Assembly (NCBI GenBank): GCA_965230955.1
Contig: OZ246404.1
Span: 856,790 to 920,789 of the forward strand
Origin: an uncultured Candidatus Saccharibacteria bacterium
GTDB taxonomy: Bacteria; Patescibacteriota; CALEFQ01
Direction of reading: 5' to 3'
DNA: 64,000 bases
This document shows, piece by piece, positions 29,857 to 56,228 of the stretch (positions are counted from its first letter, which is position 1; the number at the start of each line of letters is the position of its first letter). The notes below the pieces were generated by a model. It saw nothing but the letters and a program-made list of their open reading frames with translations, made no database searches and was not told where the DNA came from. A program made the translations under genes and the position numbers.

Positions 29857-30117
29857 TTAAGCTTTGAATTTCCTAATCTTCGATATTAGTCCTAGCTTCT
29901 CCGACCGCGATAGTTTTTTAATCCTGGTTTCGGCTCTCGCCGCCGTTGATCGACAACGAAATTTTTTAAACCAAGACAGACGTACCGGCCGACGGGCAGC
30001 GGTATATTTGGCGCCGCGCGGAGATGAATTATGCTCCTGCAGGCGGCGAAGTACGTCGGTAGTGATCCCGGTATAGAGCGTACCGTCAGCGCATTTTACT
30101 ATATAGAGAGTGTACAT
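29857..30117 (-). CDS. GIY-YIG nuclease-domain small protein
   Basis: LYIVKCADGTLYTGIT...RRLQEHN matches the GIY-YIG core. 86 aa. Confidence 0.75.
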   Translation of the reverse strand: MYTLYIVKCADGTLYTGITTDVLRRLQEHNSSPRGAKYTAARRPVRLSWFKKFRCRSTAARAETRIKKLSRSEKLGLISKIRKFKA

Positions 30118-50396: not shown

Positions 50397-50472
50397 TGGC
50401 TCCCCGGGCTGGACTCGAACCAGCGACATCCTCGTTAACAGCGAGGCGCTCTACCGACTGAGCTACCGGGGA
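50397..50472 (-). tRNA. tRNA-Asn (GTT)
   Basis: Cloverleaf read from the reverse strand. Acceptor TCCCCGG/CCGGGGA. D-arm GCTC-AGTCGGTA-GAGC. Anticodon loop CTGTTAA. T-arm GCTGG-TTCGAGT-CCAGC. Encoded CCA. Confidence 0.85.
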
Positions 50473-50540: not shown

Positions 50541-50918
50541 TCAGAGAGTACTGCGAACCTTGTTAATCATAGAAGCGACAATACGCGTGATTTGCTCGCT
50601 CTCAGATAATAGTTCTTCCAAGTGGCCATTGTCAACCATTTCCAGTTTCTTTAATATATCGAGCCAATACATCGTTTCATTCGCTTCTTTCAAAGCAATG
50701 GTGGCCGAACTAAGAAAATCTTTTTTAGAGCGATTAATCCTGGCTTCGGTCAGATTTGATCCGATTGATCCGGCCGATCTAATCACCTGATCACCCACTG
50801 AAAATTTCACCGATCCCGGCGGCAAACTACCAATTATTCTAACCACTGCTACTGTCAATCGCTTAGACCTTTCAACGATGTCATTTTCTTTTGAATATTG
50901 ACAATATACCCTCCTCAT
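50541..50918 (-). CDS. Four-helix-bundle protein (TIGR02436-like)
   Basis: ~120-aa all-helical protein with the conserved SIGSNLTEA-type motif. Confidence 0.55.
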   Translation of the reverse strand: MRRVYCQYSKENDIVERSKRLTVAVVRIIGSLPPGSVKFSVGDQVIRSAGSIGSNLTEARINRSKKDFLSSATIALKEANETMYWLDILKKLEMVDNGHLEELLSESEQITRIVASMINKVRSTL

Positions 50919-52274: not shown

Positions 52275-54074
52275 TTAGCGTTGATTAATTTCTTTTTCCA
52301 AATTCTGCAGCTCGGCCGACCGCCGAGAAAATTCCGAAGACCAGTGTTCGATATCATTCACCTGGCTTTTTGATTCCGCCTGAAAAATTTGCCCACTGAT
52401 GTCCTGCAGTTTTTGCTTGAGATAACGCCGCTTCAGCAGGCGTAGGCAAATTCGCAATTCCGCGCTCAAGGTTTCCACATCGACATCCTGGAAATCCTGT
52501 TCCACCTGAAATACCAGCTGCTTGGCGAAAGCTTCTTCTGCCGGATCGGCTTTCTTCAGTTGCAGTAATAATTCCGCTTCTGTTTTCCAGCGCTCAGAGT
52601 TGTATTGGGTTTCCAGGCGGGAATATAATTTCCGAATTTTTTCATCAACTAAATATTCCGAATCAAAATGATCAAGGAGGTATTCCATTTCAGCCGGCAA
52701 ACGGATCAGCAGTCCGAGCAGTCGGTTTTCCAGCGCCGCGGCTCCGGAAATTTTTTCGGGCGTCGCCGGATCGACCGGCGGACGCCGATCGCGAACGGGA
52801 TTGGCGACAGGCAGTTTGCTGATCGACGCCTGTAGAGTATCCGTCGGAACGGCGATAATTTTAGCCAGCCGCTCCAGATAATGGTATTGCTCCACGTTAT
52901 TATCAATACGCTTAATCACCGGCAATAATTCCGCCGCCATTTTTTTCTTGTCAGTCACCTTGGCCGGATCGCGCCCGCGTCGAGCCGTCTCAAAAAAATA
53001 CTCCATAATCGGCCGCTGGTCGGCAATCGCCTGTTTCCAAGCCGCCGGGTTTTTTACCGCCAGATCTCCCGGATCTTTTTCCGCCGGCAATTTAATGACC
53101 GTGACGTTAAATCCGCGCTGTAAGGCCAGATCTATCCCGCGCCGAGTGGCCAGATCACCAGCCAAATCCATATCGAAGGCCAGGGCGATATTCTTCGTAT
53201 AACGTTTCAGAAGTTCCAGATGCCCGTCAGTCAGAGCCGTGCCGGAAGAAGCTACGACGTTTTTCACTCCGCTCTGATGAGAAGCCAGAATATCGGTGTA
53301 GCCTTCCACTATAATGGCCTGTTGCGCCGTCCGAATGGCCGAGCGCGCCGCCGATAAGCCGTATAAAATCCAACTTTTATGATAAATTTCGGTTTCGGGC
53401 GTATTCAGATATTTGGCTCCCTGATCGTCGTTCCGTAAAACGCGGCCGCCAAAACCGACCACATCGCCGTGCACATTTTTGATCGGAAACATCAGGCGCC
53501 CGCGGAAACGATCATAATATCCGCCGCGGTCTTTACGGACCGTCAAACCGGCCGCAAAAATATCATCATCGGTATAATTACGTTTTTTCAAGAAAGTACT
53601 GAGAATATCCCAGGAATTCGGGCTATAGCCGATAGAAAATTCCTCGATCGTCTGGGCATTAAATTGCCTTTTGGCAAAATAATCCCGGGCTATTTTGGCT
53701 TCATGACTTTTCAGAAATGCCTGGTGAAAATATTTTGCCGCGAGGTTGTTGATCTCGTATAATTTATTTTTGCGCGACCAGGCTTCGGGATTGCGCGGTT
53801 TAATTTCGATCCCTGCTTTTTGAGCCAGCGTGCGCAAAGCCTCACCGAATTCCATCCCCTCTTTTTCCATAATAAAAGTAAAAATGTCGCCGCCCTTCCC
53901 GCAACCGAAACAGTGCCAGATCTGCTTGTCCGGGCTGACCATGAAGGATGGAGATTTTTCTTGGTGAAAAGGACAAGGCGCCTTGAAATTAGTGCCGGAT
54001 TTTTTGAGCAGCAAGTACTCGCTGATGAGATCAACGATATCGAGGCGCTCTTTTATTTGGTCGCGTTCGTCCAT
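52275..54074 (-). CDS. dnaG: DNA primase DnaG
   Basis: Zinc ribbon [13 protein letters not shown]...[14 protein letters not shown] region EGYTD...D. The start was set at [18 protein letters not shown], a typical DnaG N-terminus. Confidence 0.9.
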
Positions 54075-54080
54075 CGATGG

Positions 54081-54154
54081 GTCTTTAGTCTTTGGTCTAT
54101 AGTCTTTGGCCCGAAATAACAAAGGCTAAAGACCAAAGACAAAAGACTAAAGAC
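54081..54154. repeat. Long imperfect palindrome built from AAAGAC heptads, immediately 5' of the dnaG start
   Basis: Left arm GTCTTTAGTCTTTGGTCTATAGTCTTTGGCC, a 12-nt loop, and right arm GGCTAAAGACCAAAGACAAAAGACTAAAGAC (~26/31 complementary). Confidence 0.6.
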
Positions 54155-54260
54155 TTTAGAATAAAATAATCGCCAAAATCACCAGCACGATGACCGGGAT
54201 CAAGAGCAGTCCCCAATTTTTTAGTAAACGCGGCATTAATTAGTCGTTAGTTGCTATTCG

Positions 54261-54375
54261 TCGGTCGATGAATCGTATCTGGCCGTGCCAGATGAAGTCT
54301 CGATCGATTAATCGTGTCTGGCAGTGCCAGACAAAGCTCGGTCGATGAATCATGTCTGGCTGTGCCAGACGAAGC
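54261..54375. repeat. Three tandem ~38-bp repeats, each containing the palindrome TCTGGCnGTGCCAGA
   Basis: Units at 54261, 54300 and 54338. The same palindrome recurs downstream of each tRNA-Pro, at 54702 and 54941. Confidence 0.7.
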
Positions 54376-54413
54376 TCGCCTCTGGCGAGCGTAGTCTGGT
54401 CGGGGATGAGGGA
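54371..54413. repeat. 43-bp direct repeat, copy 1 (tRNA-Pro 3' end plus downstream hairpin)
   Basis: GAAGCTCGCCTCTGGCGAGCGTAGTCTGGTCGGGGATGAGGGA, identical to 54745-54787. Confidence 0.8.
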
Positions 54414-54417
54414 CTGA

Positions 54418-54684
54418 CTACGCTCTGCTGCGCAGAGCTTCGTCAGTTAAAATTCGCTTCCATAAAACAGCTTTCCCGGAACCCGCTTTAAAATATTTCT
54501 CCAACTTTCTAGCGGTATACTCTCGAGGAACGGCGATATATGCAATTACTTTCCACGGGCGTTCTGCTTTCGTCGATATATTCAACCCAGCATTATGCTC
54601 GGAAAATCTTCGTGCAAGATTGTTTGTCGAACCAATATAAATCCGATTAGTCTGGCAACTTTTTATTATATAAACAAACCACAT
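54418..54684 (-). CDS. GIY-YIG nuclease-domain small protein
   Basis: From the internal Met: MWFVYIIKSCQTNRIYIGSTNNLARRFSEHN. SD GGAGG upstream. The ORF track extends it upstream through the tRNA, which is implausible. Confidence 0.7.
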   Translation of the reverse strand: MWFVYIIKSCQTNRIYIGSTNNLARRFSEHNAGLNISTKAERPWKVIAYIAVPREYTARKLEKYFKAGSGKAVLWKRILTDEALRSRA

Positions 54685-54744
54685 TTCCCCTCCTATTTTA
54701 GTTGATTGTCTGGCCGTGCCAGACGCCTGCCTGCCGGCAGGCAG

Positions 54745-54787
54745 GAAGCTCGCCTCTGGCGAGCGTAGTCTGGTCGGGGATGAGGGA
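54745..54787. repeat. 43-bp direct repeat, copy 2 (overlaps the 3' end of tRNA-Pro GGG)
   Basis: Identical to 54371-54413. Confidence 0.8.
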
Positions 54788-54847
54788 TTCGCACCCTCGA
54801 TCTCCTGCACCCCATGCAGGCGCCTTGGGCTACTGGGCCAATCCCCG
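54771..54847 (-). tRNA. tRNA-Pro (GGG)
   Basis: Reverse-strand cloverleaf. Acceptor CGGGGAT/ATCCCCG. Anticodon stem CCTGC/GCAGG with loop ATGGGGT. T-arm GAGGG-TGCGAAT-CCCTC. Encoded CCA. Confidence 0.8.
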
Positions 54848-55003
54848 ACTACGCTTGTGCTTCGCACAAGCTTCGTCGGGCGGGCCCGCTAAGACCCGTC
54901 CGACGAATGGAAAATACCAAATTGTAAAATTGATTCCTGTGCCTGGCCGTGCCAGACGCCTGCCTGCCGGCAGGCAGGAAGCTCGCCTCTGGCGAGCGTA
55001 GTC

Positions 55004-55080
55004 TGGTCGGGGTGGTGGGATTCGCACCCACGATCTCTGCGACCCGAACGCAGCGCCTTGGACTACTGGGCCACACCCCG
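55004..55080 (-). tRNA. tRNA-Pro (CGG)
   Basis: Reverse-strand cloverleaf. Acceptor CGGGGTG/CACCCCG. Anticodon loop TTCGGGT. T-arm GTGGG-TGCGAAT-CCCAC. CCA. Confidence 0.8.
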
Positions 55081-55284
55081 ACTACGCTTGTGCTTCGCAC
55101 AAGCTTCGTCAGGCGGGCCCGAATCGAGGCCTGACCAAGGAAGCTCACACGAAAATCGTTACTCTAATTGTAAAATTCGTTTTAGGATATTAAGAACCTA
55201 TTGGCCGCAGGCCATACGAAGCCTTGAGCGTAGCGAAAGGCGAAGTATGGCCTGCCAGACGAAGCTCGCGAAGCGAGCGTAGTC

Positions 55285-55374
55285 TGGCGGAGAGGGTGAG
55301 ATTCGAACTCACGAGGCCTTTACAGACCTACGGCTTTTCGAGAGCCGCGCCTTCAACCACTCGGCCACCTCTCC
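55285..55374 (-). tRNA. tRNA-Ser (CGA)
   Basis: 90-nt type II tRNA. Acceptor GGAGAGG/CCTCTCC. Anticodon loop CTCGAAA. Long variable arm. T-arm GTGAG-TTCGAAT-CTCAC. CCA. Confidence 0.8.
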
Positions 55375-55592
55375 AAATAGTATTTGGTCACTTGTCGTTG
55401 GTCTTGTGAAGACCATCCATCTTTTTACCAACTTCTTAACAATTTGGCACTACCATAACACCAAAATAGCCTGAAGCAACTGTTTAGGCCGCGTGGCACA
55501 GTTTAGCACTGGAAATTAAATACGTCTACCTTTTTACACAGTAAAACAGGCTTTGTGTCAAAACAACTCTAATTTCTAATATAGCCGCTAAA

Positions 55593-56228
55593 CTAGTCCT
55601 GAATGTTTACAATTTGGGCATTTTCCACCCGATCACCTTCTGCATGTGGATCAGATATAACGGTATAAATCGTCGGCACTGCAACCGGATTGGCGGTGCC
55701 AGCCGGAGGGTAATACTCCAACTGCACTTGATAGCATTGTATCCCCAATGAAGCCGATACCATTGGACATTTTGTTTGATCAGCCACGTCACTCATACCA
55801 GTAACCTGAATACAGCCGACATTATTGGTGAAAAAGTCGGTGAAGTTCTGCTTGGTTGTACCGGATTGTGAAGAATATCGAGCCAGCGCATCATCAGCCA
55901 GCATGGCGAAAGCCGTGTCATAATTTTTGTGATCAATCGCGTCAAAATACTTCAGCAATGCTTGGTGCAACGCATTGGAAGAACCGTAGCTTGGCTTGGT
56001 CAATTTACAAGCAGTGTCGGTCGGCGAGACAGTAGCCGTAGGAGTTAGAGTGGCTGAAACTTCGACTTGGTTCCCGCTCGTGCCGGCGGTTTCATTGGCC
56101 GGACGAATCGAGTCCGTCGTATTGTTTCCGACAGTGCAATTACAACCGGCACCGGTCATAACAAAAATCAAAGCCAAGCCTAGGATAAAGGTCGCGACTA
56201 CGCTTCCTTTGTTTTTAATTTTTTTCAT
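55593..56228 (-). CDS. Putative lipoprotein
   Basis: Signal peptide with lipobox LIFVMTGAGC. Thr/Ser-rich linker. Confidence 0.5.
   Translation of the reverse strand: MKKIKNKGSVVATFILGLALIFVMTGAGCNCTVGNNTTDSIRPANETAGTSGNQVEVSATLTPTATVSPTDTACKLTKPSYGSSNALHQALLKYFDAIDHKNYDTAFAMLADDALARYSSQSGTTKQNFTDFFTNNVGCIQVTGMSDVADQTKCPMVSASLGIQCYQVQLEYYPPAGTANPVAVPTIYTVISDPHAEGDRVENAQIVNIQD

Follow-up and report, generated by a model that had tools for sequence, protein, structure and literature searches.

A GIY-YIG endonuclease with a comparable habit is SegB, from the tRNA cluster of phage T4, which acts on a 27-bp site extending from GGTTCRANTCC in the T-arm to CCAR (PMC2330249). SegB cuts after CCAR and at more proximal points, and drives its own inheritance (PMC2330249). 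It also brings about tandem amplification of segB plus tRNA, and the gene is enriched beside tRNAs in phages (PMC13096335). Neither of these accounts mentions inverted modules or partial tRNA duplication (PMC2330249, PMC13096335). Here we describe a locus in a 64,000-nucleotide stretch (the window) of contig OZ246404.1 from an uncultured Candidatus Saccharibacteria bacterium, in which an 88-amino acid (aa) GIY-YIG nuclease gene lies between an intact tRNA-Pro(GGG) gene and a copy of the 3' end of that gene.

Like SegB, the nuclease is encoded among tRNA genes, and the interval duplicated here is that from the SegB recognition motif to the preferred SegB cut. SegB spreads non-reciprocally together with flanking tRNA sequence and gives tandem units of nuclease plus tRNA, such as are found in the window and in one metagenome locus (L040). 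However, SegB is of phage origin, has a DNA-binding region at its C-terminus and is longer than 88 aa, judging by its described truncatable C-terminus. There is no sequence match beyond the GIY-YIG motif, and the window fold is closer to Slx1/UPF0213 than to I-TevI. The element described here is chromosomal (Patescibacteria, Bacteroidota, Ignavibacteria) and comes with inverted palindromic modules and a partial tRNA duplication.

Standalone Slx1-like/UPF0213 proteins (BH0048, PDB 1zg2) have the same minimal single-domain architecture and are the best profile and fold matches. The family is of unknown function, and adjacency to tRNA genes, tRNA-fragment repeats and palindromic modules are unreported for it in the same source (PMC1564403). 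The other UPF0213-like gene of the window, a second small GIY-YIG open reading frame (ORF) of the classical UPF0213 type (29860-30116, minus strand), likewise shows no such features, with no tRNA, fragment or module nearby.

In fungal mitochondria, for example in Endoconidiophora, partial 3' duplications of atp6 and cob lie beside free-standing homing endonuclease ORFs (PMC6279837). There too the nuclease ORF stands just past an essential gene and is followed by a duplicated 3' segment, and the gene stays intact. However, the hosts are organellar protein-coding genes, the endonucleases are larger and multi-domain, and no inverted palindromic module pair is described (PMC6279837). Integrative elements at tRNA 3' ends likewise regenerate the tRNA and are flanked by direct repeats that come from its 3' part, but the window element is about 0.33 kb, has one nuclease gene and no integrase, and its repeat has a fixed left boundary at about position 61 that touches a palindrome. 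REPtrons consist of a RAYT (HUH Y1 transposase) gene flanked by inverted REP palindromes and are dispersed genome-wide. The resemblance lies in a single small nuclease-type gene between inverted imperfect palindromes with a conserved core, with gene-less arrays nearby. The enzyme here is of the GIY-YIG type and the modules are limited to tRNA flanks (within the 64 kb, to this locus only), which places the element outside the REPtrons. No description of the bacterial tRNA/GIY-YIG arrangement was found in the full-text literature; most subscription journals fell outside the coverage, and an earlier account is possible.

We consider it probable, at roughly 0.6, that the locus belongs to a widespread family of homing-type selfish cassettes at tRNA 3' ends, lying in the same orientation as the tRNA and measuring about 0.35-0.6 kb. 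The evidence that carries this reading is the recurrent architecture, presence and absence among relatives, a recent transfer to this same site, a nuclease with intact catalytic residues under purifying selection, and DNA-level palindromes.

The locus and its nuclease gene

DnaG homologues put the organism among the Patescibacteria, close to Microgenomates/Daviesbacteria. Read in the direction of transcription, the minus strand carries, one after another, tRNA-Ser, tRNA-Pro(CGG), tRNA-Pro(GGG), the 88-aa GIY-YIG ORF and a 17-nt copy of the tRNA-Pro(GGG) 3' end. Beyond this copy follow three 38-bp tandem units, a 26-aa membrane-type ORF, dnaG and rpoD, all on the same strand. A palindromic module recurs along the locus and is called M(+) where it follows a tRNA and M(-) where it is inverted. 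The features are as follows.

55285..55374, minus strand: tRNA-Ser(CGA), first in the tRNA cluster (ARAGORN; Rfam tRNA 58.3 bits)
55249..55287, minus strand: M(+) directly 3' of tRNA-Ser, CCAGAC-TACGC-hairpin-GCTTC-GTCTGG-CAGGCC (motif match 55258-55284); in sequence, its outer stem is formed with the tRNA CCA end
55128..55183, minus strand: 3'-terminal remnant of a GIY-YIG ORF that was deleted (CGAATTTTACAATTAGAG...); its homologue is the 3' end of an intact GIY-YIG gene that the relative L001 has upstream of tRNA-Pro(CGG) (blastn 85.7% over 56 nt, L001 379-434)
55077..55113, minus strand: M(-) touching the 5' end of tRNA-Pro(CGG) (motif match 55080-55110; inverted repeat)
55004..55080, minus strand: tRNA-Pro(CGG) (ARAGORN, Rfam; 100% identical to the L001 copy)
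54941..55003, minus strand: trailer of tRNA-Pro(CGG), with M(+), the palindrome CCTGCCTGCCGGCAGGCAGG (54959-54978) and the hairpin GTCTGGCACGGCCAGGC (54941-54957) (repeat and motif searches)
54844..54940, minus strand: spacer resembling a deletion derivative of the cassette (AATCAATTTTACAATT...), closing with M(-) at 54844-54880, whose outer stem takes in nucleotides 1-4 of tRNA-Pro(GGG) (motif match 54847-54877; fold; comparison with intact cassettes)
54771..54847, minus strand: tRNA-Pro(GGG), the intact tRNA that hosts the cassette (ARAGORN; Rfam 52.5 bits)
54745..54787, minus strand: direct repeat copy 1, comprising tRNA positions ~61-76 plus CCA (54771-54787) and M(+) (54745-54770) (repeat search, 100%)
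54708..54745, minus strand: 20-nt palindrome hp2 (54726-54745), missing from the relative L026 in the alignment, and hairpin hp3 GTCTGGCACGGCCAGAC (54708-54724) (repeat and motif searches, L026 alignment)
54418..54684, minus strand: GIY-YIG nuclease ORF, 88 aa, with its own Shine-Dalgarno sequence (Pfam PF01541, E 2e-17)
54414..54446, minus strand: M(-), CTGAC-GAAGC-hairpin-GCGTA-GTCAG, the right end of the cassette, touching the tRNA fragment (motif match 54416-54444; fold; family statistics)
54397..54413, minus strand: 17-nt copy of the tRNA-Pro(GGG) 3' end, comprising the T-stem 3' strand, acceptor 3' strand, discriminator and CCA (repeat search)
54368..54396, minus strand: M(+) trailer module for the second time, completing repeat copy 2 (54371-54413) (repeat and motif searches)
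54261..54378, minus strand: three tandem 38-bp units, each a degenerate half-module plus a GTCTGGCAnnGCCAGAC hairpin (TRF score 171)

An earlier note on this DNA had described a 43-bp direct repeat made of the last 17 nt of tRNA-Pro(GGG) and the hairpin downstream of it. The repeat search recovered it as 17 nt of tRNA and 26 nt of trailer, with 54371-54413 and 54745-54787 being 100% identical. The GIY-YIG gene is indeed the sole real ORF in the 331 bp between the copies. The 38-bp array is present as well (54261-54378, period 38, 3.1 copies, 85% matches), with GTCTGGCAnnGCCAGAC in every unit, as are the three hairpins 3' of each tRNA-Pro, which fold far better than shuffled sequence (z = -5.9 and z = -7.4). 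Every element that the note had listed lies where it had been placed. However, the triple hairpins and the array, which had been presented as lying next to the insertion, are parts of one system and not mere neighbours.

The repetition goes further than had been described. A third copy of the 43-nt repeat lies at 54978-55020 (93% identical), and the two tRNA-Pro units form a 233-bp tandem repeat of 90% identity. When the 20-nt palindrome CCTGCCTGCCGGCAGGCAGG is taken as an indel the repeat runs 17 nt further with one mismatch, and is effectively ~62 nt long. The core of the hairpin that follows the tRNA is conserved and non-palindromic, GACTACGC-(stem-loop)-GCTTCGTC. The same module in inverted form, GACGAAGC-(stem-loop)-GCGTAGTC, stands directly upstream of both tRNA-Pro genes, and M(-) also encodes the last codons of the GIY-YIG ORF (T-D-E-A...). 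In the whole window the pattern GACGAAGCT-N(8-24)-AGCGTAGTC occurs five times, each time at this locus, with 0 expected. The GTCTGGCnnTGCCAGAC palindrome is matched 9 times where 0.09 would be expected, and all copies in the window are again at this locus.

The ORF has AGGAGG 8 nt 5' of its ATG. The product belongs to the GIY-YIG superfamily (PF01541, E 2.2e-17, 63.5 bits against a cut-off of 22.6), and Y5, Y16, R26, H30 and E62 are invariant in 31 homologues. Profile comparison with the PDB gave 1zg2 (E 2e-6) and Slx1 (E 3e-4), and the AF2 model (pLDDT 91.6) has Foldseek TMq values of 0.63-0.69 to Slx1 versus 0.42-0.51 to I-TevI. As modelled, the 88-aa protein is a minimal Slx1/UPF0213-type GIY-YIG domain, nearer to Slx1 and the UPF0213 protein BH0048 than to I-TevI. 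It consists of the catalytic domain alone and does not have the SegB/I-TevI architecture with its C-terminal DNA-binding region. It also falls outside the group I intron endonuclease family TIGR01453 (27.3 bits against a cut-off of 56, residues 3-39 only). A look-up of the exact protein sequence returned no record.

Several other origins were considered and rejected. A tblastn search of 50,697 phage records returned four weak matches in Listeria phages and no T4-like phage, and a scan of IMG/VR returned partial N-terminal matches only; as neither gave real homologues, a phage origin and membership in SegB were dismissed. PADLOC gave marginal matches only (E about 5e-3), leaving a defence system unsupported. 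A group I intron in a tRNA gene does not apply, as the tRNA genes are uninterrupted and Rfam finds no intron in 53500-56000. In that interval, at E up to 1, Rfam reports the three tRNAs only, apart from weak microRNA-like matches that stem from an AAAGACT heptamer palindrome. No recombinase is encoded between the repeats, where the GIY-YIG gene is the only ORF, or among the neighbouring ORFs in a domain search. A scan for promoters and terminators near the GIY-YIG ORF found nothing exceeding chance.

Recurrence beside tRNA genes and the palindromic modules

Metagenome contigs were scanned with the alignment of the 31 homologues, and of the 80 loci obtained the 64 with adequate flanks were used for the counts. 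The earlier note had proposed a search for other GIY-YIG copies with the same flanks, and the layout does recur beside tRNA genes in these loci. A tRNA gene on the same strand is found within 450 nt upstream in 46/64 loci, and one on the opposite strand in 0/64. The upstream tRNAs are 40 Ser, 2 Pro and 1 each of Arg, Gln, Leu and Lys. The usual host is tRNA-Ser, all four isoacceptors being sampled; other hosts are Pro, Lys, Arg, Asp and Gln. Just downstream of the ORF, in 33 of the 64 loci, this tRNA's acceptor 3' strand appears again, separated from M(-) by 2-4 nt plus the T-stem. Sequence derived from tRNA is present on both flanks in 39/64, and an intact tRNA on the same strand within 250 nt downstream in 12/64. 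Named homologues come from Ignavibacteria, Bacteroidota and Patescibacteria, and homologues below ~54% identity are mostly without tRNA neighbours.

The fragment starts at or beside tRNA position 61 (range 59-64), right after the T-loop, and touches the inverted module. It matches the adjacent tRNA whatever its type (Ser, Pro, Lys, Arg, Asp). Non-CCA gene trailers occur in both copies, and therefore the fragment copies the tRNA gene and not the mature tRNA; a retro or primer-like origin from mature tRNA was rejected on L033, L034 and L040, in which both copies show CAA or no CCA. L112, the cleanest case, has a duplication of CCCTCTGCTCCCACCA alone, and beyond the distal copy stands another trailer, of the resident type, which indicates that M(+) is part of the cassette. 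Loci differ in repeat length, from 13 to 95 nt when cassette-type modules are included, and clean cases have 15-17 nt ending at the tRNA 3' end; there is no transposase. The trailer motif is carried by at least 41 of the 56 tRNAs next to a GIY gene, and among the remaining 140 tRNAs of these loci by at most 8. The raw script counts were 34/49 and 15/147, and seven tRNAs with a missed adjacent GIY ORF were reassigned by inspection.

One locus (L040) is a tandem array of the whole cassette with 2.3 units, and two others (L056, L076) are module arrays without GIY. The 38-bp units of the window are degenerate versions of such GIY-less arrays. Closely related cassettes were also searched for hopping between tRNA types. 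Nearly all kept the same tRNA type, and only L071 and L073, with 87%-identical cassettes, differed in their tRNA contexts.

The module has the form N5-6/GAAGY/hairpin/RCGTA/N'5-6, with inverted copies flanking the GIY-YIG ORF, and is largely limited to cassette-bearing tRNAs. A set of 47 distinct M(-) modules was selected on the core alone with stem pairing ignored. Their outer arms, in 32 different sequences, pair at 5.34 of 6 positions (33 modules perfectly), and permuted arm partners pair at 3.6 of 6, with a maximum of 4.04 in 2000 permutations. Covariation links the last base of GAAGY to the first of RCGTA, and ACGAAGCT is kept even across the differing reading frames of the window and L022. 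The stems are ~95% Watson-Crick and have no bias for G.T over A.C (7 against 7; 2 against 3), which favours a palindrome acting at the DNA level over an RNA structure. Selection on module RNA structure was rejected on this ground.

The lack of bias also bears on a guided mechanism. The layout superficially resembles that of guide-RNA-associated transposon nucleases (TnpB/IscB), in that M(-) overlaps the ORF 3' end and is followed by a 16-17 nt flank, but those have a large RuvC or HNH effector, the protein here has 88 aa, and stems without G.T-over-A.C bias argue against an RNA scaffold. In an OMEGA-like system the M(-) hairpin and the following 16-17 nt of tRNA sequence might serve as a scaffold-plus-guide RNA, or as a single-stranded DNA guide, directing the 88-aa GIY-YIG protein toward unoccupied tRNA genes. 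In a milder version a purely structure-specific nuclease might recognise hairpins or cruciforms that the modules and the tRNA gene form by extrusion. We regard both versions as highly speculative, the least probable of the explanations considered. Should the structure-specific version be true, bacterial mobile elements would gain a new class in which a structure-specific nuclease is the driver.

Occupancy and age among relatives

The relatives L026 and L027 (DnaG protein identity 85%) have the same tRNA-Pro(GGG) arrangement, including the fragment and the three tandem units. In L001 (DnaG 81%) and L141 (78%) no GIY-YIG gene lies between tRNA-Pro(GGG) and the small ORF/dnaG, so that the comparison for an empty site suggested by the earlier note gave a positive answer. 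In L001 GIY-YIG genes stand upstream of each tRNA-Pro instead, and in the window the spacer before tRNA-Pro(CGG) retains a 56-nt match (86% identity) to the L001 gene 3' end, the ORF being cleanly gone. The tRNA-Asn gene of the window (50397-50472) is empty, and L026, L001, L013, L018 and L022 carry GIY-YIG genes there with tRNA-Asn fragments. GIY-YIG occupancy differs at four sites among close relatives. At the tRNA-Pro(GGG) site the pattern expected of a homing element is found, that is presence (window, L026, L027) and absence (L001, L141) at a fixed site together with non-vertical inheritance.

The cassettes at tRNA-Asn (L026 5702-6113; L001 5011-5481; L018 18297-18681; L013 9569-9936; L022 13750-14185) have their fragments at different ends. 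In L026, L001, L013 and L018 a 5' fragment lies upstream of the ORF, and in L022 a 3' fragment lies downstream of it. The mirror-image cassettes run from a 5' tRNA fragment (positions 1 to ~26-35) through the GIY-YIG ORF to the intact tRNA, and the fragment has a GC-rich hairpin inserted in its D-loop. The GIY-YIG stop codon of L013 and L018 lies within the tRNA-Asn D-loop. The proteins of the mirror-image cassettes belong to other subfamilies.

The GIY-YIG ORFs of the window and L026 are 95.1% identical in nucleotides, with a synonymous divergence (dS) of 0.17 and a nonsynonymous divergence (dN) of 0.02. Between the same genomes synonymous sites are saturated in dnaG (dS 2.0, 76.6% nucleotide identity) and rpoD (dS 1.6, 79.7%). 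The cassette is therefore much younger than the divergence of the genomes, though it occupies the same site in both. A conserved block of ~92% identity begins at the 5' end of tRNA-Pro(GGG) and stops at the last tandem unit. This comparison points to a recent horizontal transfer of the cassette into the same site. For this pair of sequences dN/dS is about 0.12, which shows purifying selection on the protein. The trailer module has CTCGCCAGAGGCGAG as its inner hairpin in the window and CCCCTAAGGGG in L026, the same in all copies within each genome, which implies duplication in situ or later gene conversion.

Both tRNA-Pro genes of the window (54771-54847, 55004-55080) have the T-loop TGCGAAT, with G at position 55 in place of the near-universal U. 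The L001 tRNA-Pro(GGG) has the canonical TTCGAAT and is 83.5% identical to that of the window, and for tRNA-Pro(CGG) the identity between these genomes is 100%. By this evidence the window tRNA-Pro(GGG) may have been replaced by a duplicate of the CGG unit, or co-transferred with the cassette. The 20-nt perfect palindrome CCTGCCTGCCGGCAGGCAGG (54726-54745 and 54959-54978) is an indel relative to L026. A near-identical palindrome lies in the D-loop of partial tRNA-Asn copies in L001 (5036-5055, 5350-5369), and a related one in an unrelated metagenome locus (L056, ~2318-2340). The palindrome behaves like a separate mobile mini-palindrome. In an independent short-read assembly of the same organism the contig (L142, 1-20) breaks exactly within the repeated tRNA-fragment/module sequence.

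The locus could in principle be a local accident, in which a tRNA-Pro unit (leader module, tRNA, trailer) was tandemly duplicated, a third copy lost its first 60 nt and the GIY-YIG gene came to lie in the spacer by chance. The tandem units are real (233-bp period, 90% identity), M(-) precedes both intact tRNA-Pro genes as well as the fragment, and the window tRNA-Pro(GGG) is closer to its own tRNA-Pro(CGG) than to the L001 tRNA-Pro(GGG) (83.5%). However, the junction of M(-) with about position 61 is found in at least 33 unrelated loci at Ser, Lys, Arg, Asp and Pro tRNAs, such a shared end point is not expected of random deletions, and the cassette is far younger than the genome. These observations make the accident improbable, and with it the second proposal of the earlier note, that of a one-off degenerate tRNA duplicate invaded by a nuclease gene.

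A cellular role is only slightly less doubtful. The gene may have a function linked to tRNA or to DNA repair and be co-transcribed with the tRNAs, the hairpins and the fragment being signals for RNA processing or termination. It has the orientation of the tRNA and its own ribosome-binding site, it is under purifying selection, and the finding of only one weak promoter-like match (9/12 positions, 54722-54695, within chance) suggests co-transcription. Standalone Slx1-like GIY-YIG domains also occur fused to tRNA methyltransferase-like domains (PMC1564403). A housekeeping gene does not accord with the patchy presence at four sites in close relatives, the signal of horizontal transfer, the deletion remnants and the tandem copies, and the absence of wobble bias speaks against selection on RNA structure.

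Around the cassette, the 26-aa hydrophobic ORF (MPRLLKNWGLLLIPVIVLVILAIILF; 54156-54236, minus strand) between the repeat array and dnaG is kept in L001, L026 and L141. L026 has an additional 324-aa ORF (1009-1983) with no Pfam match between the array and this small membrane ORF, which is absent in the window, L001 and L141. A long heptamer inverted repeat (GTCTTTA x4 facing AAAGACT x5; 54081-54155) lies upstream of the dnaG start and overlaps it. The relatives use other heptamers there (GTCTATA/TATAGAC; L026 ~2075-2150, L141 ~233-300, L001 ~1275-1350), so that the structure is conserved and the sequence is not. Between rpoD and tRNA-Asn lies a gene for a 23S rRNA intervening-sequence protein (50549-50918, minus strand; PF05635, E 3e-22), in the same place in L026.

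Formation of the cassette and its wider meaning

The cassette would comprise, on the tRNA sense strand, an intact tRNA and an M(+) palindrome whose outer stem begins with the CCA of the tRNA. A short spacer with a ribosome-binding site and an ORF for an 80-90-aa minimal Slx1/UPF0213-type GIY-YIG protein would come next, then M(-), the inverted palindrome that overlaps the ORF end. Last would be a copy of tRNA positions ~61-76(+CCA), or the 5' end of the next tRNA, and then the resident trailer. The nuclease may cut an unoccupied tRNA gene between the T-loop and the CCA end, as T4 SegB does, and the cassette would be installed by repair from a cassette-bearing copy. The tRNA would be kept whole because its 3' segment is present twice, and the distal copy would be inert for want of the T-loop half of the site. 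Repeated cutting and repair could then give rise to the tandem units, the GIY-less module arrays and the deletion remnants.

That this nuclease makes the break, and where it cuts, we infer. The repeat spans the interval from T-arm to CCA, a geometry that fits homing. Candidate routes to the duplication are fill-in of a staggered cut, a single crossover with an excised circle, or a retained right-hand homology arm. The earlier note had likened the repeat to a target-site duplication left by a GIY-YIG insertion at a tRNA 3' end. One part of this is upheld: there is a mobile cassette inserted at the tRNA 3' end, and the repeat is the product of that association, because the architecture recurs beside many tRNAs, L001 and L141 are empty, and the cassette is more than 10x younger than its surroundings in the comparison with L026. 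However, a classical fill-in duplication is not established, because 26 of the 43 nt are a palindromic module of the cassette system and not of tRNA genes generally, because among loci the repeat measures anything from 13 to 95 nt while one of its ends stays near position 61, and because the cleanest case, L112, duplicates only 16-17 tRNA nucleotides. Homology-dependent insertion stimulated by a break fits the repeat data at least as well.

A tRNA 3' end repeated directly is what attL and attR classically look like, and Campbell-type integration is the strongest of the competing explanations, though an unlikely one. Under it a circle excised through the direct repeats would enter a matching tRNA 3' end by a single crossover, with host recombination or a trans-acting recombinase as the catalyst, and the GIY-YIG protein would be cargo or only a stimulator. 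A single crossover gives the observed order exactly. It would also explain the lineages that keep one tRNA type, the use of all Ser isoacceptors with their shared 3' ends, and the tandem arrays. Against it, no integrase or transposase lies in or beside the element, and a core of 16-17 nt is short for RecA-dependent recombination. Moreover, fragments re-created on a change of tRNA type have left boundaries that are almost the same (59-64), which favours an end defined by a nuclease over an inherited one. We hold this integration, the local duplication and deletion, and the housekeeping role each to be less likely than a homing-type cassette.

Several points weigh against the homing cassette. 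The protein is a catalytic domain only and lacks the SegB- or I-TevI-like DNA-binding domain that sequence-specific recognition of the tRNA gene would call for. The occupied allele keeps an intact tRNA, the presumed target, and its immunity would have to come from the adjacent M(+). The dS estimate is based on just 88 codons, the genome-specific inner hairpin in both repeat copies is not predicted by simple copying from a donor, and related cassettes mostly keep one tRNA type, hopping between types being rare.

What is new in the locus is a SegB-like lifestyle with a minimal Slx1-like nuclease in bacterial chromosomes, together with palindromic modules and a tRNA 3' fragment. Thousands of bacterial genes are annotated as GIY-YIG nuclease family without a known role. 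The locus and its relatives suggest that one large subfamily of small GIY-YIG proteins is a selfish cassette specialised for tRNA genes, which spares its host through partial duplication. If confirmed, this would extend the SegB paradigm beyond T-even phages to the chromosomes of Patescibacteria, Bacteroidota and Ignavibacteria, and would provide a function for part of the UPF0213/Slx1-like family. It would also account for tRNA-fragment pseudogenes, palindromic arrays and assembly breaks by tRNA genes (as in L142), and would make available a nuclease of very small size whose target is conserved and portable. Such cassettes are likely to fragment metagenome assemblies at tRNA loci. They may also drive the turnover of tRNA genes, as the tRNA-Pro(GGG) of the window was seemingly replaced together with its cassette.

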